A DNA stretch of 29,280 nucleotides from a virus. The DNA lies in IMG/VR virus record IMGVR_UViG_3300045988_140557, positions 1 to 29,280 of that record; one strand, 5' to 3'. The notes beneath the pieces were generated by a model. The model saw only the letters and a program-made list of their open reading frames with translations. It searched no databases and was not told where the DNA came from. Position numbers and translations under genes: made by a program. Shown piece after piece: positions 1,770-29,280 of this stretch; the stretch's first letter is position 1; every line of letters starts with the position of its first letter.

Positions 1770-1794
1770 AAATAGGGAGATTTACTCCCTATTT
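1770..1794 (-). terminator. 10-bp stem / 5-nt loop hairpin (AAATAGGGAG attta CTCCCTATTT) directly beside repeat element A.
   Basis: Perfect inverted repeat with A/T-rich flanks. On the minus strand it is followed by TTTGTGTTT. Confidence 0.55.
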
Positions 1795-1797
1795 AAG

Positions 1798-1847
1798 TGT
1801 CAAGTTTTTTACTCACTTTTAGTAGTTAAAATAAATAAAAACTGACA
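1798..1847 (+). repeat. 50-nt intergenic element, copy A: TGTCAAGTTTTTTACTCACTTTTAGTAGTTAAAATAAATAAAAACTGACA.
   Basis: The first 18 nt are identical in copies A-D. The termini are inverted (TGTCA...TGACA). Confidence 0.85.
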
Positions 1848-1992
1848 TTTTAGTGTTTAGCTTTTCAAAGATCTATTTGCCTTTTTTCTTCTTTTCCTTT
1901 ATCAAGTAAGTAACAAATAATATTCAAGAACTCTTGAATCTGCATATCATATACTTGATGCCAATTTAACCTTGTTACTTCACTAACCCTGT

Positions 1993-2653: not shown

Positions 2654-3901
2654 CTATTTAATTTTAATATTATAATGTCCTTTGTTTGTATTTAATGAGT
2701 CATAGGCTAACATTAATGAAATTACTGTATCATCATTAAATCCAGATGGAGCATTATAACTAACATTTCCAGTTTTTGGATTATATGAAGCCTCATATAG
2801 TCTTAACTCATTTAAAAGTTTATCATCTTTTAATAATCCTATCTTTTCATTCTCCAAAGCAGCTTGAAGCTTATTAACTATATCTGCCTTACTCTTATTA
2901 GTAGTTAAGAATCGTATAATTCTGATTTTCGGATTCTTCCGAACTAACATATCATAGAAGACACTACCAATTGAGTTTTGTTCAACTTGTACAATCTTTA
3001 TAAATCCTTGATACTCAGTTAGTATATTTGTTAATAAATCAACTTGCTCTGTTGGAGTTTTATCGTTAAAATACTTTATAAAGACCATTTGCCCAGATTC
3101 ATTTAAAGCAGTAACACAAGTATAGTCTTTACCACTTCCAGTAGCTCAGTCTATTCCTATATAAAGACTCTGATAATCTGGTTTTTTCTCAATTATGCAA
3201 TTAGCTATATTATTAAATAAACAGCCATCATCATCTGCAAATTCCCCTAAGTATTCAGTTCTAAATTTATTTTTTGAGGTTGTAAGTCGATACATCTCTA
3301 ACTTCTCTTTATCTAAAAGCATAGATGTATCTTCTAAAGCCCAATCAAATGATTTATAGAACTTGTCATATTTTGGATCTAACCCTTTAGTAAAGCAGTC
3401 ATAAAAGAAACCCTCTCGGAACCTTGGAGTACTAATAATTAATATTGGAGCAGACCAAACATCAGCTATAGGAGTTAATATTTCAAATACTTCATCCGAT
3501 ATATATGCTGCTTCGTCTATTACTAATAATCCACTTACTGTAAATCCTCGTAATGAATCTTTTTGCTCTGCAGATTTAAATAGTATTTCACTCCCATTAG
3601 TAAACTCTATTTCTAACAATGACTCATTTTTCTTTTTAATAAGATCACATTCTCCAAGAGCTTTTATGATTTCCTTAAATATTTTTCTACTATTAGTTAA
3701 AGTGGGTTCTACTATACAACTAATACTGCCTGGATAATTTATAGAGAATCTTAATAATTCATTTTCTGCCATAAATGACTTTCCACATTGTCTTTTAGCT
3801 TTTACTGTAAATATTTTTCCAGATCTATAAGAGTCATTCATTGCAGTATGTACTTTGTACTGATAAATAAATGGCCTATATCCTTTATATATCCTTGTCA
3901 T
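2654..3901 (-). CDS. terL: Terminase large subunit (415 aa), made of fragments 3146..3901 and 2654..3088 joined through TGA 3146-3148.
   Basis: Walker A (KAKRQCGKS) and Walker B (LLVIDEAA) lie in the N-terminal fragment. Read-through gives GID-W-ATGSGKDYT, which starts an RNaseH-like nuclease domain in the same frame. There is no TAA/TAG in the 3089-3145 gap. TAG stop. Confidence 0.85.
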
Positions 3902-4337
3902 TTATAATGGGGTCTCCAAATTTAAATTGGCATTCATTATTTTGAATATTAACTTGAATTTCTGGTTGATTTAATCCAAACATAGAATTTATTGTTTTAA
4001 TAACTTCAGTAGCAGATCTTACATCATTTTTACTAACAGCAATATCCAATAATGTTTCCAATCTTGTTAATTGTATATGTCTTAAATTCTTTATAAGATT
4101 ATCGTTTTTATCTGCAATAATCTTATAAGCTTCCCTAATATATTTAGCAGCAGTAGTTTGTCCAACTCCATATTTAGTTTGAAGTTCTTCACTTACTTTA
4201 TTTCTAGATCATCCTTTATTAAATAATCTTGCTGCATAAAGATATTTAGTTTTTTGTTCGTCTATTTGATTCTCTTTTACCTCTTCCTTTCTTGGCCTCC
4301 CTGTTTTCTTCGGCAGCTCTTGATCCTTCACTTTCAT
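3885..4337 (-). CDS. terS: Terminase small subunit candidate (150 aa; one TGA at 4209-4211).
   Basis: Not in the ORF track because TGA splits it. Translation: MKVKDQELPKKTGRPRKEE...YLYAARLFNKG-W-SRNKVSEELQTKYGVGQTTAAKYIREAY. This is a basic N-terminus plus a helix-turn-helix. It ends 17 nt inside terL and overlaps the upstream ORF by 92 nt in another frame. Confidence 0.55.
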
Positions 4338-4581
4338 TTGTTTTTAATTTTTCTTGATATTCAAAATAGATTGGAGCAATCCTCTTTATAAGATTAAGTA
4401 TACAAGTAGCACAAGCTACGCTCATTCTATATTCTTGTTCAATTAAGTATTCATAAATCTCTTTAAGCTTAATTACATCCTGCTTTTGTACATTTCTGCA
4501 ATAATTAGACTTAGTTGCAGTTACAAATCTATCTTCAAATCCTCTTAAATATTTAAACTGCTCTTCTGTTAATTGTTTCAT
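4246..4581 (-). CDS. Hypothetical protein (111 aa) with a basic C-terminal tail.
   Basis: Intact ORF with a TAA stop. Its charged tail overlaps the terS start. Confidence 0.45.
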   Translation of the reverse strand: MKQLTEEQFKYLRGFEDRFVTATKSNYCRNVQKQDVIKLKEIYEYLIEQEYRMSVACATCILNLIKRIAPIYFEYQEKLKTNESEGSRAAEENREAKKGRGKRESNRRTKN

Positions 4582-4670
4582 AATTAGCGCTTTTTAGTAT
4601 AAGTAAATATAGAAATTAACTTTCCATTCTTGTAGTGATAAATAACTTCTGTTTCCATAAAATATAATTT

Positions 4671-5000
4671 TTAATCAATAAGTTTGTATATAACATCTAT
4701 TAGTTTAGTAGATGCATCTTTTAATAATATCATAATATCTTTAATAATTGGAGTCATAAATGCTAATAGTGCAATATATCCAACCATTAAAATTGAAAAT
4801 TGACTTGTAATAAGAATATATATTAATCCAATTCACCAAGTCATACATAAACTGCAATCTAAAGGTTTTAGTCTTCAATCTTCTTTATAAGGCATACCTT
4901 TAAATAGTCTTTTTCAAATACTATGTTTAAAACTATCTAAAGCTCCAGATAAATCAATTATAAAGACTATTATTACTGCTATTATAAATAATTCTAACAT
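4671..5000 (-). CDS. Small integral membrane protein (109 aa) with a CxxC motif. Three TGAs at 4914, 4875 and 4833.
   Basis: Absent from the track. The table-4 translation is MLELFIIAVIIVFIIDL...KPLDCSLCMTW-W-IGLIYILITSQFSILMVGYIALLAF..., giving about 3 hydrophobic helices. TAA stop. Confidence 0.55.
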
Positions 5001-5239
5001 AATCTCTCTCTTATTTGTTTAATAAATCTTTGAATTGTAGTATGACTAATTCCCAATATTCTTCCCACTTCTCTATAACTGCGATATTCAGCATATAATA
5101 TGATTACTGTCTTATCTGCCTTATTAAGCTCAAGTCATTTTGGATATATACTTAATAATCTATCATCCATATTTGTAAACATACTATAGTCTATCTCATA
5201 CTCAGTAAGCAAATCATCAATATTAATCTTCCGTTTCAT
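4994..5239 (-). CDS. Sigma-70 region-4-like HTH protein (81 aa; TGA at 5135-5137).
   Basis: The translation contains ...LNKADKTVIILYAEYRSYREVGRILGISHTTIQRFIKQIRERLC. This resembles the sigma r4 / LuxR-type HTH layout. TAG stop. Confidence 0.45.
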
Positions 5240-5531
5240 TTAATCAATCCTCCAATTCGTCATTTTGTTGTTCAAGTGGTTCTTTAACAATCTCATAATA
5301 TTTCTTATAAGTATAGTAATATCTACTTGTTTTACTAAACCAATAATTCTTAAATAATCTTGTAATCCAAAATTTCAATTCATTTTTGCTATCAAGCTGA
5401 TTTAATTTTGGATTTGATGTTTCCAGAAGGTCTAGTACACACATCTGGAAACAATCATCATCCATTCCAAATTTAAGTTTTAACTCTTGGCAGAAGTCAT
5501 AGTATTTGGTAATAATCTCATTATTTGTCAT
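5223..5531 (-). CDS. Sigma-70 region-2-like protein (95 aa to TGA 5244; 102 aa if TGA is read).
   Basis: DDDCFQMCVLDLL and ELKFWITRLFKNYWFSKTSR resemble the sigma r2.1-r2.4 pattern (xDxxQxxfl ... Wlxxixxnxxxdxxr). It sits directly upstream of the r4-like ORF. Confidence 0.4.
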
Positions 5532-5955
5532 TTGCTATATAGTTACTAAATTCTGTATTTACATCTATCTTGATGGCTTTCTTTAAAGACAACTCTGTTT
5601 TTAATGAATAGCCATAAGTTCCTCCAAAATCTGTTGTAGAACAACCATATTTCATAGAATCCTTTATAAAGGCTTGTTTTATATCTTTAAATATATATAC
5701 TCCATCATCAAATATTATTACTAATATAGAATTATTTCTTGATAGCATATCAAATTTATCCCTATTAATAATAGTGGTTGGATATTTATTAGAATTAAAT
5801 CTTCTCCTTTTAACTTCAATTATATAATCAATTCCATTCCAATTAAATGTTCCATCATATCTGGAATAATCATCTTTACATCATTCTATATCTATATTAA
5901 ATTTCTCTTTAAATAGATTCTTTGTAAAGACTAAGCTTCTTATATCTGTTTTCAT
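5521..5955 (-). CDS. PD-(D/E)xK-like nuclease candidate (144 aa; TGA at 5881-5883).
   Basis: Extending the track ORF 5521..5748 upstream through TGA gives MKTDIRSLVF...IE-W-CKDDYSRYDGTFNWNGIDYIIEVKRRRF..., a D...E-x-K arrangement. The start has a TAATG overlap with the upstream gene. Confidence 0.4.
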
Positions 5956-6194
5956 TATTTTATATTATTAATTTTAAGTGTTAAATCACAATATTCTTCA
6001 TATAAATTAGATACTTCTTCACTTGCTGGATTAACCCACATTACTGAATCTAATTTATGTTTTAATTCTGCTCTTTCTAATCTTAATTCAAATGTTTTAT
6101 GTTGTCTTTCCTGATAGACTTCATTTACTCTAAAACCTGCAATAATTGAAGATGCAATTAAAAGGCCAACTAAAATTTTATTTATTTTTTTCAT
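5955..6194 (-). CDS. Small N-terminally anchored membrane/secreted protein (79 aa). It is the first gene of the minus-strand block.
   Basis: Intact ORF with the hydrophobic N-terminus MKKINKILVGLLIASSIIAGF. Confidence 0.5.
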   Translation of the reverse strand: MKKINKILVGLLIASSIIAGFRVNEVYQERQHKTFELRLERAELKHKLDSVMWVNPASEEVSNLYEEYCDLTLKINNIK

Positions 6195-6239
6195 AATTTT
6201 ATTATTTAATATGTTATTACTTGTTTTATTATTGTACTA

Positions 6240-6271
6240 CAAAGATAATACATTTTTATTCAATTTCCAAA
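6240..6271 (-). promoter_or_regulatory. Promoter for the minus-strand block: TTTG-N20-TATCTTTG.
   Basis: On the minus strand, TTTG is at 6271-6268 and TATCTTTG at 6247-6240, about 45 nt upstream of ATG 6194. It fits the Bacteroidota -33/-7 consensus. It also fits a generic TTGnnn-N17-TATnTT promoter. Confidence 0.55.
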
Positions 6272-6347
6272 TTTTTTAGGTATTATTTTTATTATTTTCA
6301 AAAAAATATTACTATTTGTATTTTTATTATATTTTAATAAAAACAAT

Positions 6348-6833
6348 ATGATTTACATAATTAAATTAACTAAAACGAATTTTATTAAAGTTGGTTACAC
6401 CACTAATATAAGTGGTAGACTAACTGCTTATAAAAACACTATTCCAAATGAAATGATAGAATTTTTTATAGCAAAAGAAGGAACTAGAGATGATGAAAAT
6501 TATTATAGAGATAAATATAGAGCATATAAAACTAAGAGTAATTCAGAATGGTTAAAACTTCCAGATGAATTAATTGTAGAGCTATTATCAGATTTTAAGA
6601 GTGCAAATAATATAAAAATAAATAAACAAAGTAAAAAAGAGTGATATAATGAGAATATAGATAAATTAGTAGAATTGTGTTTATCTGGAGTATCATTAAA
6701 TAGAGCTGCAATTCAATTAAACGCACTAAATTGAGATTGAATAAAATATGCTAATCAAAGATATGAAAAAGAGAATGGTAAAAAATTAACAAAACTTTGG
6801 GTAAGAAAAATAAAGAAAAGTTTTGCAGAATAA
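6348..6833 (+). CDS. T5orf172 (GIY-YIG-superfamily)-like domain fused to a C-terminal HTH (161 aa). The fusion requires reading TGAs at 6642, 6732 and 6738.
   Basis: The N-terminus, IYIIKL..IKVGYTTNISGRLTAY...SEWLKL, fits the T5orf172 pattern. After TGA 6642 the same frame stays open to TAA 6831 and reads NENIDKLVELCLSGVSLNRAAIQLNALN-W-D-W-IKYANQRYEKENGKKLTKLWVRKIKK. Confidence 0.6.
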
Positions 6834-6852
6834 AAATTTATTATTATATTTG
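6822..6852 (+). promoter_or_regulatory. Promoter candidate: TTTG-N19-TATATTTG.
   Basis: TTTG at 6822-6825 and TATATTTG at 6845-6852. It overlaps the end of the T5orf172-HTH gene. Confidence 0.45.
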
Positions 6853-6900
6853 TAGTGTAAAGAAAAAAAATAATTTTTATTAAAAATAATACCTAAATTA

Positions 6901-6932
6901 TTTGGAAGTATAAAAATAATGTTGTATCTTTG
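6901..6932 (+). promoter_or_regulatory. Promoter candidate: TTTG-N20-TATCTTTG.
   Basis: TTTG at 6901-6904 and TATCTTTG at 6925-6932. The -7 box and the following GTAGTA are shared with the 6240 promoter. Confidence 0.5.
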
Positions 6933-6960
6933 TAGTATGAAACTAAAACTAATAATTCTA

Positions 6961-6986
6961 GGCAGGTGAAAATCCTGCCACTTTTT
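6961..6986 (+). terminator. Intrinsic-terminator-like hairpin, GGCAGG tgaaaat CCTGCC followed by ACTTTTT.
   Basis: 6-bp GC stem, 7-nt loop and a T-run. It lies about 30 nt downstream of the 6925 promoter box and 10 nt upstream of element B. Confidence 0.55.
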
Positions 6987-6995
6987 GAATCTTAC

Positions 6996-7045
6996 TGTCA
7001 AGTTTTTTACTCAAATTTAGTAGTAAGAAAATAAAAATATTGACA
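6996..7045 (+). repeat. 50-nt intergenic element, copy B: TGTCAAGTTTTTTACTCAAATTTAGTAGTAAGAAAATAAAAATATTGACA.
   Basis: It carries the 18-nt invariant core and the TGTCA...TGACA termini. Confidence 0.85.
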
Positions 7046-7075
7046 AAAACTTTAACTATTTAAATTATTAAAATT

Positions 7076-8797
7076 ATGAAAACATATTTAAACAATTTGA
7101 TTAATGAGTTGCCAACTAACTGTTTATTTGATAAAGGAAAAGTTGGATGTGGAGGAACTTCAATGGCAATTGAATGTAATAAGCCTTATGTTATTTGTGT
7201 TCCATTTACTAGCTTAGTTGAAAATAAACTTCAACAATATCCAAATGAAAGACGTACTGAGAAGATATTTGGAGTTTATGCTGGAGTTACTATTAAAGAG
7301 ATTAAAGATTACGTAGATAGTGTTAAATGCCCTAAAATTATTGTTACATATAACTCACTTCCAAAAGTTATTTCTGCAGTTAATACTAAAGAATATAGTT
7401 TATTAGTAGATGAATATCATATACTATTTAATCAGTATAGCTTTAGAAAGGATGCTATTAAACCTGTTTTAGAGAACTATAAATTATTTAAAGATTTTAC
7501 ATTTATGACTGCTACTCCTCTTGAAGAAGAGTTTGTATTAGATGAATTAAAAGATTTAGAATTAGTAAAACAAGAATGGGATGATGTTATTGAAACTAAG
7601 GTACAAGCTGTTAAATGTAAGAATGTTGAAGCTTCAACTATTAAATTAATTAATGCTGTTCTTAATAATCAAGTAGAAGGTAATGTTTATATATTTGTAA
7701 ATTCTGTAGACTTTATAAAGAATCTTATTCAGAAAGCTAAACTTACAGAAGAGAATACAAGAGTTATATACTCCAAAAACAATAAAACCAAATTATCAAT
7801 TCACAATTCTACAGTATTAGATGAACCTAAGAAAATAAATTTATTAACTTCTACAGTATTTGAAGGTTCTGATATTTATGATGAAAATGGAAGAATTGTA
7901 GTAGTAAGTGATGCTCAAAAAGCACAAACTCTTCTTGACATCTCAACTTCTATTCAACAGATTGCTGGTAGAATTAGAAATAGTAAATATTTAAACTGGA
8001 TAACTCATCTTTACTCAGCAACAAGATATGCAGATATTAGTTATGAAGACTTTAAAAAGAAGAATATCCAGAATATTGAGGAAACTAAGATTGCTGTAGA
8101 TGCTTACAATGCAATGCCTGAAGTTGCAAGAAAGAAACTTAAGGAATTTACATCCGATACTTATATCCAAGTAAATGATGATTTTACATTTACATTTGAT
8201 CCAAATATGGCTAAGGTAGATATTTTTAACTTTAAAGTGACAAGAGGTTTATATTCTATTAGAACAAATCTTAATAAAGAGTATATAAAGAATGGATTTA
8301 AAAAAGTAGTAGAATGTGAAGACAACTCTATTAAGATTGATTTTGAATCTGATAATAAACCATTTAAAGAACTAATTAAAGAAGTTAGAGCAGAATGGGA
8401 AAATAAATTTAAATTGAATACTCCACTCTTAAATGATGCTATTATTAAATATCCTTGGCTGCCAGAAGCTATTAGTAAATTAGGATTCGAAAAGATGGCA
8501 AGTTTAAAATATTGCATTTCTGATATTAAAGATGCTCTATTAAAGAAATCAAATAAAAGTGCAGATAACAAAGCAGCTAAGAAGTTAAATCAATCAATTA
8601 CTCTTGGAATGTGGTATTCTAACGCTGATATTAAAAAGTTTGTTAAAGAAGCTTATGAAATTAGTGATATTACTATTACTCCAAAAGCAACAGAAATTGA
8701 TAAATATTATGAAGTTAAAAAATGCCAGAAAAGAGTAAATGGTAAACAAACTGAAGGTTATGTAATTATTAATAAAAAGTTTGTATTTAATAAATAA
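7076..8797 (+). CDS. Superfamily-2 helicase (573 aa), the likely replication/recombination protein.
   Basis: Motif I-like GKVGCGGTS, motif II LLVDEYH (DExH), motif III MTATP and motif VI QQIAGRIRN. Intact under any code, with 5 TGG and 0 TGA. Confidence 0.6.
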   Translation: MKTYLNNLINELPTNCLFDKGKVGCGGTSMAIECNKPYVICVPFTSLVENKLQQYPNERRTEKIFGVYAGVTIKEIKDYVDSVKCPKIIVTYNSLPKVISAVNTKEYSLLVDEYHILFNQYSFRKDAIKPVLENYKLFKDFTFMTATPLEEEFVLDELKDLELVKQEWDDVIETKVQAVKCKNVEASTIKLINAVLNNQVEGNVYIFVNSVDFIKNLIQKAKLTEENTRVIYSKNNKTKLSIHNSTVLDEPKKINLLTSTVFEGSDIYDENGRIVVVSDAQKAQTLLDISTSIQQIAGRIRNSKYLNWITHLYSATRYADISYEDFKKKNIQNIEETKIAVDAYNAMPEVARKKLKEFTSDTYIQVNDDFTFTFDPNMAKVDIFNFKVTRGLYSIRTNLNKEYIKNGFKKVVECEDNSIKIDFESDNKPFKELIKEVRAEWENKFKLNTPLLNDAIIKYPWLPEAISKLGFEKMASLKYCISDIKDALLKKSNKSADNKAAKKLNQSITLGMWYSNADIKKFVKEAYEISDITITPKATEIDKYYEVKKCQKRVNGKQTEGYVIINKKFVFNK

Positions 8798-8811
8798 AAA
8801 TATTATATTTG
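8780..8811 (+). promoter_or_regulatory. Promoter candidate: TTTG-N20-TATATTTG, ending 5 nt before ATG 8816.
   Basis: TTTG at 8780-8783 and TATATTTG at 8804-8811. The mRNA would have a very short leader or none. Confidence 0.45.
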
Positions 8812-8815
8812 TGAT

Positions 8816-9094
8816 ATGGAAGGCGATATTAAAGAAACAATTAAACAAACAGAAGAGTATATTAAAGAATTGGATAAATGAATACTTGAGTGTAAAGAAG
8901 CTACTAAAAGATTTGGAGATATTATAGACAAAGTATTAAAAGATAAAGATTATTTATTTCTAAATTTGATTAATTATGGATGATTTATTAAAAAAGCTTG
9001 AAGAACTGGAATACATAATAGTTCAATTAAACGAACTGAAGGGAGGTTTAGTTTGGGAAGAAGTAGAAGAAATGCCAAAACCAGAAATTACTAA
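8816..9094 (+). CDS. Small ORF with an uncertain end: 21 aa under table 11, 55 aa if TGA 8981 terminates, 92 aa under strict table 4.
   Basis: MEGDIKETIKQTEEYIKELDK-TGA-ILECKEATKRFGDIIDKVLKDKDYLFLNLINYG-TGA-... The part beyond 8981 overlaps the next ORF out of frame and looks non-coding (rich in R/S). Confidence 0.3.
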
Positions 9095-9262: not shown

Positions 9263-9290
9263 AAATAGGAGGGTTTATGCCCTCCTATTT
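9263..9290. terminator. Bidirectional terminator hairpin at the convergence of the plus and minus blocks.
   Basis: 11-bp stem AAATAGGAGGG / CCCTCCTATTT with a 6-nt loop and A/T runs on both sides. The HNH stop codon lies inside it. Confidence 0.7.
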
Positions 9291-9608
9291 CTGTTTAAAT
9301 CTTTGATAATTACTAACCGATGAATGAATAGCTTTATGACAAACTGAACATAATGTTATTAAATCTTCCAAATGTTCCTGCTCATTATATAAATTCTCAT
9401 ACGTCTTATGATGTACCGATAAAGACCTATTTCCGCCTTCCTGAACGCATCAATTACAAGTTTGGCAGTGGTAGTTATCCCGCAATAATATTTGCTCTCT
9501 AATGGCCTTAAAATCCTTTGATCTTATATATCTTTGGTACTTTAAATATTCTTCACTTCTTACTTTCTTCTTTGTCTTATGAAGCAGTTTACTTGATTTG
9601 GAGTCCAT
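9285..9608 (-). CDS. HNH endonuclease (107 aa; TGA at 9450-9452).
   Basis: Absent from the track. Translation: ...NYHCQTCN-W-CVQEGGNRSLSVHHKTYENLYNEQEHLEDLITLCSVCHKAIH. This gives CxxC ... HH ... CxxCH. TAG stop. Confidence 0.8.
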
Positions 9609-13073: not shown

Positions 13074-13452
13074 AACTTACGTATGTATTAGGTTTGTCGT
13101 ATTGATAATTATTATTTTCATAATCTCCAATTCTTATTAATCCTGTTCCCAATATAGGTATTGGTTTACCAGCAACTAATATCTGAGTACCATTAGTAAG
13201 AGTATTATTATATGTAACCAGAATAACTGGATTACCATATAACTCTGATCTAAATGGATTGTTTACATCAACTATAACTTGAAATTTATTTGGATTAGTA
13301 AATAAAATATATTGATATTCACCGTCTCTCATTCCTTCTTGAAGTGTAATATCAAACTTATAGTAGATATTCTCAGAATAATTCTGATTTTCAAGATTAA
13401 ATGTATAAACTTCTTTAGTAGTTGTATTTTGAAGAATTAAACTGTAGTTCAT
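13060..13452 (-). CDS. Hypothetical beta-rich protein (130 aa).
   Basis: Intact ORF with a TAA stop. It overlaps the portal start by 14 nt. Confidence 0.45.
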   Translation of the reverse strand: MNYSLILQNTTTKEVYTFNLENQNYSENIYYKFDITLQEGMRDGEYQYILFTNPNKFQVIVDVNNPFRSELYGNPVILVTYNNTLTNGTQILVAGKPIPILGTGLIRIGDYENNNYQYDKPNTYVSYERK

Positions 13453-13453
13453 A

Positions 13454-13482
13454 TTTTACATAGTTTTACATTACTTTTACAT
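13454..13482 (-). repeat. Three tandem ATGTAAAA repeats (10-11 nt period) abutting start codon 13452.
   Basis: Plus-strand TTTTACAT occurs at 13454-61, 13464-71 and 13475-82. Confidence 0.8.
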
Positions 13483-13527
13483 ATCTTTTTCTTAAAATAT
13501 AAACCAATTTACTAATGTATTAAAATA

Positions 13528-13555
13528 ATTAAAGGAGACCTAAGCCTCCTTTAAT
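13528..13555 (-). terminator. Hairpin ATTAAAGGAG / CTCCTTTAAT (8-nt loop) abutting element C.
   Basis: 10-bp inverted repeat. On the minus strand it is followed by a T-rich tract. Confidence 0.5.
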
Positions 13556-13604
13556 GTCAAGTTTTTTACTCACTCAAAGTACTAAGAAAAAATAAAAACT
13601 GACA
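13555..13604 (+). repeat. 50-nt intergenic element, copy C: TGTCAAGTTTTTTACTCACTCAAAGTACTAAGAAAAAATAAAAACTGACA.
   Basis: It carries the 18-nt invariant core. It starts 1 nt after the stop (13606) of the LRR paralogue on its right. Confidence 0.85.
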
Positions 13605-13605
13605 A

Positions 13606-14592
13606 TTAGTTTGAACTTGCTAAAGTTCAGTTTTTAGATGCAGCTAATGATTTCTGTTCCTCAGTAAGTGCATTATAAACGTTAGTATAAAAAGTTAAAG
13701 TTTTGGTATCCTTTCCAGTTAAATCACTAACATTTGTAATAATATCAGTTACTGATTGACTATTTAGTACTCTAAAATTTGCTAAATTCATACTTTTATC
13801 AGCTCCTTCAACACCCCCAAAATAAGTTACAACACTACTAGCTGTACCACAAAGTGCTGTTTTATTAAGATCTTGGTATAAAGAACAATTTGTTAATTTT
13901 ATTTTACCTACAGATGTGATATTAGATGAATATGAGCTAAAATACTGAGTAAAAGTTACTTGCCCATTTATAACTTCAATTTCAGGGACACTAATAGGAA
14001 CAGCAGAATCAGTAGTTACTTGATTAAAAAAATATTCTAATGCACATACACTAGTTTCATACTTATTTGTTATTGTTATATTTTTTGGAAAAGATGAGGA
14101 TAAATAAAATGTGCGCGTACAATATCCTCAACTAGCGGATTGAGGATTAATAAATTCTAGAGTATCAATACTGCCTGCAAAACTAGAAAATGTATATGAA
14201 CGTTCGGCCTGCAGTTTTATCTCATTAATATGTATATTACTAGCATATTGAAATGTTCTTTCCGCAGCATATAATATATCTGGATTAATATGATCAGATA
14301 TATCAATAGGATCTTGAAATGAAGCCATATGAAATCAATAATTACAATCTTGTGGAATTTCATATTCAACGTTATCATAATGATCTTTATCCATTTTAGA
14401 ATTTGAAAATGTTAATCCATAATCATTTAAATTAATCTTTCCTCCACCTCCAGAAATCTGTCCTATCTTATCTGCATAGCTTCTAAAGGTATCTGAATCT
14501 GATACAGCAACACCTTTAGCTACAATAGCATCTTTAATGGCACTCTTAGTACCTTCAAGATACGTTAATTTATCAGAAATTGTATTTGCCAT
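13606..14592 (-). CDS. Receptor-binding-type protein, LRR paralogue 3 (328 aa; TGAs at 14335, 14128 and 13627).
   Basis: Fragments 14335..14592 and 14128..14328 plus the untracked 13606..14127 share one frame, which I verified line by line. The C-terminus ...VYNALTEEQKSLAASKN-W-TLASSN is paralogous to the other two. Confidence 0.6.
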
Positions 14593-22316: not shown

Positions 22317-22395
22317 TTTTTATTAATATATAAGCTATTTTAAAAATGTAATATTGTTACAATCTTTTATTTTTATATATTTATATATTATCAAA

Positions 22396-22444
22396 TGTCA
22401 AGTTTTTTACTCACTTTTGTATCTAAGATAAATAAATTTTGACA
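22396..22444 (+). repeat. Intergenic element, copy D (49 nt): TGTCAAGTTTTTTACTCACTTTTGTATCTAAGATAAATAAATTTTGACA.
   Basis: It carries the 18-nt invariant core and the TGTCA...TGACA termini. Confidence 0.85.
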
Positions 22445-22495
22445 TAGCACTACTATATAAGCACTGATAATCAGCAACTTACATAGTAGTATGTC
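22441..22495. repeat. Long imperfect hairpin bridging element D and the partial copy E.
   Basis: GACATA(gca)CTACTAT pairs with ATAGTAGTATGTC, giving 6+7 bp with a 3-nt bulge. The 26-nt loop contains its own CTGA/TCAG mini-stem. Confidence 0.7.
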
Positions 22496-22513
22496 AGAAA
22501 TTTTACTCACTTT
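22492..22513 (+). repeat. Partial element copy E (TGTCAGAAATTTTACTCACTTT) overlapping the tape-measure stop codon.
   Basis: 18 of 22 nt match the 5' end of the element consensus. Confidence 0.7.
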
Positions 22514-24845
22514 AGAAACTTGCATTTGATTCTGTAACTGCAACTTTAGTTTGAGCGTTAGTAATATCACTCTCAACTACATAACATTTAACAGGTTGAT
22601 TCAATTCATCAGTCTCTTTATTGCCAAGTAAGTTTCGAGTATATTCTACAGGAGCAGTATTTAAAGCAGCAGGAGCAGTAGTTCCTGCATCACTTCCAGA
22701 ACCACCCGATGAAGGTAATTGTTCATTTTGGATAGCCTTAACATTAGCAATACCAGCTATAACAGCTGTAGCAGCTGCAATAGGAGCAAGAATAGGACCT
22801 ACAAAAGGTATACCTACCATAGCTTTATATGCACCTTGAGCAGAACTGATAGTATCAATAATAGCTTGAGTAGTAGCTAATGCTTTATAAACTTTAAATG
22901 ATTTCTCTCTTTGCTTCTCTGATTTTGAATCATCACTGGCTTCTTGTTTAAATACATTAGCTAAAGCTCCACTTAAAGAAGAAGCCACATTCATAGTTGC
23001 TTGAATAGCTTGTTGTTTTTTAGCTTGTCTATCTTTAAATGCTTGAAGATCTGCTTCTTCTCTTGCATTAGCAGCTTCTGATAAAGCTATATCATTAGCT
23101 TCTTGCTGTAATTTAATTGCTTGAGATTGATTAGCATATTCTTGTTCAGTTATCAGTTTATTATTATATTGCTCATCTAAGATAGCTTGCTGTTGAGACA
23201 TCAATTCATTCTCTCTTGTAATTCTTTCTTTAGTGAGATTATATAACTGTTCATTATAAGCTAATGTATCTTGATATTGTCTTTGAACATCTTCTCCAGA
23301 TTGATAGAAATCAGTTGAACCAAATTGTTGAACTCTAGTTTCGTAACTTCCAGATTTACCTGCAGATAATGCAGCCTCTTTATTTGCAAATAATTGAGAT
23401 TCCCTATCCTGCATTTCTTGTAATGCAGACAATCTATTTTCTAAGTCTTCCCTATAACGTTCATTATTATTATCTAGTCACTCTTTATTATATGCATCAT
23501 TTACCTGCTTTAATCTCTCATTATATTCTTTAACTGTTATTAATTTGAGATTGTAGGCTTCTTTAAGTGCATCTAATTGATTCTGGTAGTTTCTATTTAA
23601 TTCATCAAGTTCTCTTGCTTCATCATCTAAAAGAAGCTTCCTATTTTCTTCATAGAAATCGTTAATAACTTTAAGCAGATCTTGATTATGTTTCTTTCTA
23701 TCTTCTATATTCTTTAGATACTGAGCTTTAGCATCTTCTCTCTGCTTACGTTCTGCAGCAATCTCCATTAACTTAACTTTTTCATAAGCTTCAGCAGATT
23801 TTTGCATCAAATCATTACGTTTCTCAAGATAAGTATTATAAATACCAGAAGCTTCATCATAAGCTGCTTTTTGATCATCATTTAACTTACTTAAAAAGAA
23901 ATCAACTTCATTAGAACTATTCTTTAATCCTCATTGTATGGCTTCGGAATAATCTTCCCAAGTTTCATATCCAGATTTCTTAAATTCTTTTTTGAAGTAT
24001 TTATTACTTTTAAGTATATTAGTAAATGAGTCAGAATATGCTTTAGTTACACTACCAAATTGTTGAAATAATTCAGCATCTAAATCTCCTAATGCTTCAG
24101 CATAATCTTTCCAAATTTGTATTTCACTTTTTTTACCAGCAGCTAAATCTCTCTCTCTTTGTCTCTCTAATCCTGCAATTTCAGTATTAGCTCTGGCATA
24201 GCTTGTTCCTCATTGATCAGTTATATCTTTTAAACCAGAAATACTAATTTTTAAATCATCAATTCCTGATGCTGCTTTAATTGCAAAATCTATTAGCATA
24301 CCAAGAGCTACAACTAAAGCCCCAATTCCTGTAGATATAATTGCAGACCGTAGCACACCCATTGCTACAGATAATCCTCCAGTTGCAGCCGTAGCACCAC
24401 CCATTGCTACAGATAAGGCTTTAAATGATTTTACTCCATTAAGAATACCTTCACCTAAACCTTTTAATCCTCCTATTCCTTGTACTATGGCAATTGCTGC
24501 TTGCAATTTAACCATAGTTTTTTGAAGATTCTCTGTATCTTTTCCAAATAAAGTAAATGCTGCACTAACAGCTGAAACTCCTCCAGCTAAACCTCCTGCT
24601 ACTTGATTGATACTGTCAAACGCCTTAACTGCATTTACAGTTTTACCTTGCATAGATTCTGTAGCAACACCTAACTTATTTTGAACATTAACAAGTTCTT
24701 CAAGCTTTTTAGTATAGTCAGTACTACCAATCTCAAGATCTTCAAGTTCAGCCGTCAAGCCAGCTACTTCTTCTCGTAGCTGCTTGATCGACTTTGAACT
24801 AGTTTTAGTATCTATACTAATTACTTTTTTAATTTCTTCAGCCAT
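22512..24845 (-). CDS. Tape measure protein (777 aa), made of fragments 24210..24845, 23478..23810 and 22512..23432 joined through TGAs 24210, 23931 and 23478.
   Basis: All fragments share one frame and I checked the gaps triplet by triplet. It has long coiled-coil segments. It also has Gly/Ala-rich hydrophobic blocks (GGLAGGVSAVSAAF, GGATAATGGLSVAMG, VGPILAPIAAATAVIAGIANV). Confidence 0.7.
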
Positions 24846-28292: not shown

Positions 28293-29280
28293 TTATTTAC
28301 GATAAGTATCTTGAGAAGCTTCTACATTAATTGTATAATAGAACTTGTTTTTACCTTGATTAGTATAAGTTTTATATTCACAATTTGTATCTGTAATTAA
28401 TACTGGAGTGATAGTATTATCTTTAAGATTATGCAAATATACTTTAGTACTCTCAATTAAATTAAACATCTTAAAAGCTTGAATATCATTTAAATAACCA
28501 GTATAAAGAATCCAGCTTGAAGTTATAGTATTTAAATACTTATTCCTTGCAAATTCTTGAGATGTATTTAATACTTTGCGAGTATATGTTTCAGATTTAA
28601 TTTCATCAGTCTTTCTAACATTACCCTCAACAAGTAATGAATCCCATCCTCCTGCTGAATTAGTATAATATAACACATAATCTTTACCTGTGGTATCTAT
28701 ATCATATCTAATCTGTCTATCACTAATATTTCCGTCTTCTACAAATCCTACTATTAAATAGCTCCCACAAGGCCATAGTTTATTGCTTAAATCTTCTGTA
28801 TATGTATATCCATTAATTCCAGAATTTAAACTAATATCTATAGCAGTTGATGTTCCATCTACATAAAAAAATCTATTAACAACTCCCGTTCCAGTTGGTA
28901 AAATTCAACTTGCTACTAAATATTGTCTTGGATCAACTAAACCAGTAATAGGATCACTTAACATAGTACCTTTAGTCAAATCTCTATCTTTATAACTCCA
29001 GTCATTGAAGAAAGTAATTGGTTTTTCATTTCCACTAGATGTTATCAAAGTAAATGGTTTCAAATATTCTGGAGATATTATAGTTTTTGAAGTATTAAAT
29101 ATAATCCCATTAGATAGATAATTTTCAGCAACATTATTTAATAAAAACTCTACTCTATCAGTTTCAGGATATTTATAAGCTTTTCCAGCATAGACCATAT
29201 CCCCTGCATAATCTAAATGATATTCAATAAAATCTGAACTAATAATCTCATTCCAAACATAATCTTTTCAAATTGGAGAT
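28293..29280 (-). CDS. C-terminal part of the 725-aa tail/baseplate-type protein that starts at 1245 (positions 29226-29280 duplicate 1-55).
   Basis: Fragments 28905..29198 and 28293..28676 share one frame. They are joined through TGA 28905 and an open 28677-28904 stretch. TAA stop at 28293. Confidence 0.7.
29226..29280. repeat. Second copy of the 55-nt terminal overlap (duplicates positions 1..55).
   Basis: Exact identity to 1..55. Confidence 0.9.

Follow-up and report, generated by a model that had tools for sequence, protein, structure and literature searches.

To our knowledge, sigma factors made of two pieces have been described in a single bacterial case, SigO-RsoA, to which the gp55/gp33 pair of phage T4 can be added by analogy only. 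The subject of this report is a candidate for a phage-borne case, consisting of two overlapping open reading frames (ORFs), ORF1 (sigma-2-like) and ORF2 (sigma-4-like), in a gut phage DNA of 29,280 nucleotides (nt) (positions 1 to 29,280 of IMG/VR record IMGVR_UViG_3300045988_140557; the whole stretch is called the window below). ORF1 and ORF2 are probably the two halves of a sigma factor of the extracytoplasmic function (ECF) type, carried on two polypeptides that jointly serve the host RNA polymerase. By sequence comparison, each half is homologous to the matching half of single-chain relatives, and the pair sits behind a host-type promoter-like motif, heading a block that runs into terminase and structural genes.

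Among natural ECFs, the recognised case in which sigma-2 and sigma-4 are carried by different polypeptides is SigO-RsoA of Bacillus subtilis (Xue et al. 2016, cited in PMC7826278), and neither such split ECFs nor phage ECFs were captured by the ECF reclassification (PMC7826278). In the T4 'split sigma' (Geiduschek & Kassavetis 2010), two small proteins, gp55 and gp33, take the place of the host sigma and sit on the beta' coiled-coil (the sigma-2 site) and beta flap (the sigma-4 site) for transcription of the late genes; gp33 has no sigma sequence similarity, depends on the sliding clamp gp45 and does not read DNA, and the genes for gp55 and gp33 are widely separated and separately regulated (PMC2988020).

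The window pair resembles SigO-RsoA in that sigma-2-like and sigma-4-like functions would reside on two polypeptides encoded by adjacent genes, and in being ECF-related, and differs in being phage-borne rather than bacterial and chromosomal. In SigO-RsoA the larger subunit, SigO (22.5 kDa), holds the region-4 part, RsoA (9 kDa) is region-2-like, and sigO precedes rsoA, whereas the order in the window is sigma-2 and then sigma-4, as in an unsplit gene, with halves of about 12 and 9.5 kDa. SigO-RsoA is reportedly controlled by an integral membrane protein (Davis et al. 2016); here, a conserved protein with three predicted transmembrane segments is encoded after ORF2. There were no SigO- or RsoA-named NCBIfam matches at E<=1, no search with the SigO or RsoA sequences themselves having been made. 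Compared with gp55/gp33, both window halves are sigma homologues, ORF2 retains a helix-turn-helix (HTH), which gp33 lacks, and the genes overlap. No sliding clamp gene was recognised in the annotated parts of the 29-kb genome (not every gene was scanned), and no gp55 or gp33 family of PHROGs or Pfam was among the ORF1 and ORF2 matches at E<=10.

A two-domain sigma-2/sigma-4 architecture lacking regions 1.1 and 3 is shared with the single-chain sigma factors of the ECF group (group 4), some of which are encoded by phages; their linker threads the active-site cleft and the RNA exit channel of RNA polymerase. In the window pair, by comparison, the linker is broken, the divergence is too great for curated cut-offs, and the sigma-2 half carries a family-specific motif of its own, N-x3-SKTS-x-YYY. 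A likeness also exists to the PBSX Xpf 'positive control factor' and to RinA/ArpU, which are small sigma-related late-gene activators encoded a few genes upstream of terminase, where the packaging and morphogenesis block begins; those are, however, single polypeptides. Weak matches to the Xpf-type model PRK06930 were obtained (E=0.0015-0.03), and no RinA/ArpU model was matched at E<=1 in NCBIfam by ORF1, ORF2, the joined pair or the fused relatives. The pair differs from SigO-RsoA and gp55/gp33 in the combination of a phage location, sigma homology of both halves, the unsplit gene order and the existence of single-chain orthologues.

The two genes and their junction comprised the following features:

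5223..5531, minus strand: ORF1, the sigma-2-like half, 102 amino acids (aa) under translation table 4, ending at TAA
~5424-5462 and ~5322-5372, minus strand: conserved ORF1 motifs DDDCFQMCVLDLL and FWITRLFKNYWFSKTSR, respectively, from the family alignment
4994..5239, minus strand: ORF2, the sigma-4-like half, 81 aa, with an in-frame TGA (Trp) at 5135-5137
~4997-5131, minus strand: regions 4.1/4.2 and HTH of ORF2, with the recognition-helix area at ~5015-5086
5223..5242, minus strand: junction, with the ORF2 ATG (5237-5239) within the last ORF1 codons and a 17-nt overlap (5223-5239)

TGA is a sense codon (Trp) in this genome: 38 in-frame TGA codons were found across 21 of 33 genes, TGA did not occur as a stop, and every gene ended at TAA or TAG. 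ORFs of at least 60 aa added up to 9,972 aa with table 4 and 7,114 aa with table 11, and the TGA columns aligned with TGG-encoded Trp in homologues from standard-code relatives. Under table 11, ORF1 would span 5244..5531 (minus strand, 95 aa) and stop at a TGA (5244-5246) lying four bases (5240-5243) from the ORF2 ATG. This placement had been called odd in an earlier note made from the window sequence; it is that of an ordinary Trp codon, and because the codon is read as Trp, ORF1 and ORF2 overlap by 17 nt. The ORF1 tail past this TGA, WLNETED (7 residues), was kept in close relatives, and others have Y at the position of the W. Relative to ORF1, the reading frame of ORF2 is shifted by +1, and a TAA (5240-5242) closes it directly 5' of the ATG, so that the description in the earlier note of separate, adjacent ORFs in different frames holds. 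Both domains on one linker-joined polypeptide, as in an ECF, were not found in the window. The region-2-like and HTH motifs quoted in that note are likewise present and coincide with invariant columns of the family alignment, which in ORF1 are D26, Q29, L36, W55, R58, K61, N62, W64-K67 and S69. The C-terminal tail of ORF1 is acidic, and the N-terminus of ORF2 is basic and followed by a conserved helix.

The sigma homology of the pair emerged from a match of the two proteins taken together. The best NCBIfam match of ORF2 alone was TIGR02937 (sigma70-ECF), with residues 37-80 on model positions 117-161 (E=1.1e-5, 25.2 bits), and precomputed PF08281 assignments were present on many close ORF2 homologues. 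When ORF1 and ORF2 were joined in silico, the match to TIGR02937 reached 35.4 bits (E=7.5e-9), with residues 22-182 aligned colinearly to model positions 25-161 of 165. Seven controls, in which ORF1 was replaced by four shuffles, its reverse or two unrelated neighbouring proteins before being joined to ORF2, scored 21.3-25.3 bits, and six of the seven aligned the sigma-4 part only (the reversed ORF1 gave a longer alignment, at 23.6 bits). ORF1 contributed about 10 bits at the colinear position, and the controls contributed none. Additive scores were also obtained in the L012 lineage (relatives are given L numbers here), where the pair reached 40.7 bits, against 29.2 for the sigma-4 half and 15.0 for the sigma-2 half (model positions 28-97). 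As judged from these and the family-wide matches below, ORF2 carries the marks of a sigma-4 domain (regions 4.1-4.2 with HTH), and those of a sigma-2 domain (regions 2.1-2.4) are found for ORF1 at the level of the family only.

Close homologues of ORF1 comprised 23 proteins of 98-104 aa and one 157-aa form extended at the N-terminus, and the ORF2 homologues (n=107) were nearly all 79-88 aa, with a few shorter truncated calls; a fusion of the halves was found in neither set. One ORF2 homologue (P0027) occurred on 501 contigs. An exhaustive search with an ORF1-family profile retrieved 523 clusters (50% identity) at E<=1e-3 among 1.84 billion representatives. In the best 150 of the 523, from which lengths were taken, 134 members were of 133 aa or less and 16 (about 10%) were single-chain proteins of 156-245 aa; 15 of these 16 had an N-terminal ORF1-like domain, a variable linker and a C-terminal sigma-4-like HTH, and their C-terminal segment showed the classic region-4 pattern (for example, LxWYxxxLFxxY...G.S...L...TGI....I..TI...K). 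The eight long relatives that were tested all matched TIGR02937 from one end to the other, with E-values between 1.6e-4 and 7.3e-11; the best of them, P0217, had residues 13-177 on positions 5-164 of 165 and scored 42.0 bits (cut-off 42.9). When 135 members of the ORF1 family were scanned singly against Pfam, Sigma70_r2 was by far the commonest match (32 of 135, best E 8.9e-6). A profile of ORF2 and its partners in other lineages matched the C-terminal halves of fused P0147, P0233 and P0255, in P0147 at residues 96-154 with E=1e-10 (nominal database 1e6), and a profile of the fused forms gave weak matches to PDB sequences, the first being sigma-H at E=0.012.

Predicted folds were consistent with these assignments. 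The AlphaFold2 model of ORF1 (predicted local distance difference test, pLDDT, 81) was a helical bundle with a low-confidence C-terminal tail, and in BFVD it matched viral proteins of 160-230 aa with probability ~1 and TMq 0.6-0.72, several of them named sigma-70 region 2, RpoE or sigma-70 family. The model of fused P0227 (pLDDT 86) had confident domains at residues 1-84 and 110-179 and a disordered linker at 85-108, and its Foldseek matches in the PDB were almost exclusively sigma factors (sigmaE, sigmaL, sigmaH, AlgU, CnrH, SigK, SigW, sigma32, sigmaS and sigmaA), the top one being sigmaE (1or7_B, E=0.012, probability 0.99). The N-terminal domain of the fused relatives, which is homologous to ORF1, lay inside the full-length alignments to sigma factors. 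Given the predicted disorder of the P0227 linker, the window pair is split in a part that is disordered in the single-chain form.

The same locus was found in fused and in split form. In L021, a TGA-recoded phage, the fused sigma gene (P0147, 156 aa) is preceded by a 133-aa gene and followed by a gene for a 109-aa membrane protein, and BLASTP gave the following matches to the window:

144-aa upstream neighbour and the L021 133-aa protein: 35% identity, E=6e-28
ORF1 and residues 9-89 of the L021 fused protein: 39.5% identity, E=2.5e-14
ORF2 and residues 111-152 of the L021 fused protein: 40.5% identity, E=2.4e-10
109-aa downstream neighbour and the L021 109-aa protein: 34% identity, E=4e-18

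Together with the gene order, these matches indicate that what is one gene in one phage is two in another, at the same locus. The two-gene form was found in eight lineages (the window group, L004/L016, L007, L012, L014, L015, L018 and L019), of which L012, L014, L015, L018 and L019 use the standard code, and identity to ORF1 among them ranged down to 33-37%. In all eight, ORF2 was in the +1 frame and overlapped ORF1 by 8-50 nt, and its frame was closed 0-21 nt upstream of the ATG in seven and 78 nt upstream in L012. In the relatives L001-L003, a gene for an HNH homing endonuclease (~514 nt) stands between the halves in place of window 5284..5240, and homology picks up exactly at the ORF2 ATG (5239); a fusion protein is therefore impossible there. 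The expectation in the earlier note of two polypeptides rather than one is borne out by this insertion and by the retention of the split in eight lineages. Acidic ORF1 tails were found in every lineage, even where the HNH cassette replaces the tail, and the ORF2 heads were basic with a conserved helix across lineages. When the sigma-2 domains were placed in a rough neighbour-joining tree, which is weak owing to the short and divergent domain, the fused forms fell into 11 separate groups among the split ones, which suggests that fission or fusion happened repeatedly.

Two types of non-coding signal were considered in relation to the sigma genes, at these positions:

6240..6271, minus strand: Bacteroidota-type promoter-like site, TTTG-N20-TATCTTTG, upstream of the sigma gene block
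6240-6271 (minus), 6822-6852 (plus), 6901-6932 (plus) and 8780-8811 (plus): sites of the Bacteroidota-type motif, oriented with the downstream genes
1788..1850 (minus), 6986-7048, 13545-13607 and 22395-22436, and a partial copy at 22491-22520: copies of a 50-nt element

The Bacteroidota-type motif (TTTG, 19-21 nt, TAnnTTTG) occurred four times in the window, always in the early, divergent region (6240-8811). It was kept upstream of the sigma operon in the divergent relatives L007 (47-78), L008 (8608-8808) and L016 (7070-7676). The site at 6240-6271 is a probable host RNA polymerase promoter feeding the sigma genes, as judged from its sequence and position, and the block behind it encodes, in order, a 79-aa protein, a 144-aa protein, ORF1, ORF2 and a 109-aa protein. 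No Shine-Dalgarno sequences upstream of genes were noticed by eye, which, together with the early-only motifs, points to a Bacteroidota host. The integrase of L019 carries Pfam domains that are typical of Bacteroidota, and phages of the split-sigma family probably infect this phylum. Sites of the sigma-70 type numbered 83, against 106 in shuffles, that is, below chance, and that promoter model was regarded as not applicable. In L016, a 908-nt non-coding stretch (6812-7719) has a G+C-richer core of ~450 nt between two copies of the early promoter motif, and could encode a non-coding RNA; it had no Rfam match, and Rfam searches of the whole window and L016 gave no family.

The 50-nt element reads TGTCAR-N17-TAnnnn-N7-GTGAGTAAAAAACTTGACA, followed by a hairpin, and its conserved core can be written (G/T)TGAGTAAAAAACTTGACA. 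Its five copies always had the orientation of the genes and stood at boundaries of co-directional gene blocks; the hairpin arms varied between copies and genomes with the stem kept, and the ends show dyad symmetry (TGTCA...TGACA). The element was identical in close relatives and absent from L016. The element is the obvious candidate for a target of the sigma pair, a link that is neither supported nor refuted here; its layout counts against it, as the invariant 18 nt TGAGTAAAAAACTTGACA lie downstream of the sole plausible -35/-10 pair (TGTCAR-N17-TAnnnn). It is a candidate regulatory site that could serve as a promoter, as a signal linked to termination or as a binding site for a protein.

In the mechanism that we propose, ORF1 and ORF2 would be co-produced from the overlapping genes; because each half contains an in-frame TGA, synthesis of both would depend on TGA read-through. 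By analogy with ECF holoenzymes and T4 gp55/gp33 (PMC2988020), ORF1 would dock on the beta' clamp coiled-coil and handle the -10 region and DNA melting, and ORF2 would dock on the beta flap tip and read a -35-like element. The missing linker would be replaced non-covalently by the acidic ORF1 tail and the basic ORF2 N-terminus with its conserved helix, and the pair would redirect host RNA polymerase to middle or late phage promoters (packaging, structural and lysis genes on the same strand). No account of split ECF-like sigma factors encoded by phages turned up in a literature search of partial coverage. At slightly below even chances, we put forward the wider proposal of a large, unrecognised sigma family of gut phages that is normally made as two polypeptides, assembles on RNA polymerase without a covalent linker, was split or fused more than once, and has halves that may be separately dosed, regulated or exchanged.

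Several results weigh against a sigma function of the pair. ORF1 alone had no match in Pfam or NCBIfam and none of significance in PHROGs, ORF2 stayed below the cut-offs of Sigma70_r4_2 (25.4 bits, cut-off 25.7) and Sigma70_r4 (21.6, cut-off 24.1), and the joined pair remained under the curated TIGR02937 cut-off of 42.9, as all sigma scores did under theirs. The best Pfam match of ORF2 was the generic HTH_50 (E=1.1e-7), and no Pfam sigma model exceeded its gathering score for the window proteins. The Pfam check thus came, to the letter, close to the outcome that the earlier note had named as refuting its idea (an unmatched first protein and a generic HTH as the second), and on single-sequence searches alone the sigma identity would stay undecided. 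The ORF1 model had no useful PDB match in Foldseek, ORF1-family profiles against PDB sequences gave spurious matches only, with no sigma factor among them, and the Foldseek matches of fused P0227 had E-values of just 0.01-0.4 and low TM-scores, the latter because the two domains differ in relative orientation. Megablast of window 4000-8000 and tblastn of ORF1 against INPHARED phages found no match, and the ORF1 alignment brought up no relative among the GTDB species genomes; a host or prophage could therefore not be assigned. No target promoter for the pair was identified in the window: the 50-nt element is followed by terminator-like hairpins, and it is missing from L016 despite a near-identical sigma-4 recognition helix. 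On the other side stand the colinear TIGR02937 match, the Sigma70_r2 matches of the family, the fused relatives and the orthology with L021, by which the split region-2-like and region-4-like pair proposed in the earlier note is supported.

The same evidence bears on other explanations of the locus. It is unlikely, though worth serious thought, that the halves derive from a sigma factor and no longer work jointly, ORF2 being an HTH repressor or activator, and ORF1 a modulator that binds RNA polymerase (such as one competing with the host sigma for the beta' coiled-coil) or a minimal sigma like gp55, able to do without a sigma-4 partner. The preference of ORF2 alone for a generic HTH model would fit such roles, the dyad ends of the 50-nt element would suit a dimeric HTH protein, and T4 gp55, with sigma-2 only, can direct initiation (PMC2988020). 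However, the genes were adjacent and overlapping in all eight lineages examined, split and single-chain forms substitute for each other at one locus in evolution, and fused forms were scattered among split ones in the rough tree, as would be expected of two parts working on one complex. It is very improbable that a full-length single-chain sigma is made by programmed +1 frameshifting of ribosomes within the overlap, with the separate products as by-products. Such a frameshift would fit the constant +1 phase and the overlaps, but the phase can be explained by descent from one fission event through a 1-nt insertion, the closure of the ORF2 frame leaves windows of only ~8-60 nt (128 nt in L012) with no slippery motif common to them, and ~514 nt with the HNH gene separate the halves in L001-L003.

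That the two ORFs arose from an assembly or sequencing frameshift, or are a recent pseudogene of a single-chain sigma gene, is hardly credible: single-chain relatives do exist, but the same two-ORF structure was seen in hundreds of independent metagenomic contigs and retained in lineages just 33-37% identical, and each ORF has a conserved end of its own (the acidic tail of ORF1, and the basic head and helix of ORF2). The names in public records could suggest a pair unrelated to sigma factors, with ORF2 as an HTH of the terminase-small-subunit, NUMOD1 or Fis type and ORF1 as an unrelated helical protein, since ORF1 homologues were all 'hypothetical protein' or nameless, none with a Pfam domain, and those of ORF2 were inconsistently called 'specialized sigma subunit', 'response regulator' (DAV62102.1), 'NUMOD1 domain' or 'TyrR family HTH'. 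We consider this a negligible prospect in view of the control-backed colinear TIGR02937 match, the sigma-like predicted fold of the fused relative and the predominance of Sigma70_r2 among the Pfam matches of the ORF1 family. A two-polypeptide ECF-type sigma factor remains our preferred reading of the locus.

The window has an exact 55-nt terminal repeat (1-55 and 29226-29280), which indicates a circularly closed phage genome of 29,225 bp, with a G+C content of 29%. A minus-strand ORF open at the window start (..1245) and 28293..29198 form a single 726-aa gene, as in L008-L011. The genes form a mostly minus-strand series (sigma block, terminase, structural genes, portal and lysis genes), with a short divergent plus-strand block at 6348-9094. 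No tRNA genes, and hence no suppressor tRNA, were found in the window. TGA was absent from a 573-aa early gene and several structural genes, and each sigma half has one TGA. Three ATGTAAAA repeats with 10-11 nt spacing (13453-13485, minus strand) lie directly upstream of an ATG at 13452 and precede a 130-aa gene located before the portal gene; they were kept in L016 (1960-1995). The relative L009 is an ENA scaffold of 198,436 bp with the phage at ~171-191 kb, other relatives being roughly 30 kb; the long scaffold may represent a prophage, concatemer or misassembly, and could reveal a host.

The sigma pair is part of a conserved four-gene module, the outer members of which are:

5521..5955, minus strand: upstream neighbour, 144 aa, with a PD-(D/E)xK-like IEVKRR motif
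4671..5000, minus strand: downstream neighbour, 109 aa, with three predicted transmembrane segments and the motif KPLDCSLCMTWW

Neither protein had a Pfam or PHROG match. Across relatives, the upstream neighbour was ~135-175 aa with a PD-(D/E)xK-like (E/D)xK motif, and the motif of the downstream neighbour was KP(F/L)xCxLC(M/L)(T/S)(W/F)W. The 109-aa membrane protein followed ORF2 in seven lineages (including L021, after its fused gene) and was absent in L019. It occupies the usual anti-sigma position of ECF operons, in which such a neighbouring gene is common but not universal, and could act as an anti-sigma factor. Homing endonuclease genes (HNH, I-HmuI-like and T5orf172/MUG113-like) were gained and lost between close relatives and clustered at the junctions before, between and after the sigma genes, taking the place of the final codons of ORF1 or ORF2. 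They were located as follows:

3248-3761 and 3965-4474 in L001-L003: homing endonuclease genes
9222-9716 in L009/L011: homing endonuclease gene
6348-6833 (plus strand) and 9285-9608 (minus strand) in the window: homing endonuclease genes

The pair would add a natural and abundant family of two-piece sigma factors, comprising 523 or more clusters at 50% identity, almost none of which is annotated. A function would be assigned to a common 'hypothetical protein' of gut phages (the ~100-aa sigma-2-like half), which was missed by domain-based annotation, the other half being named inconsistently. The family would offer a system for asking what ECF sigma factors need their inter-domain linker for, how the halves meet and why phages keep them apart, and orthogonal two-input transcription parts for Bacteroidota may follow.

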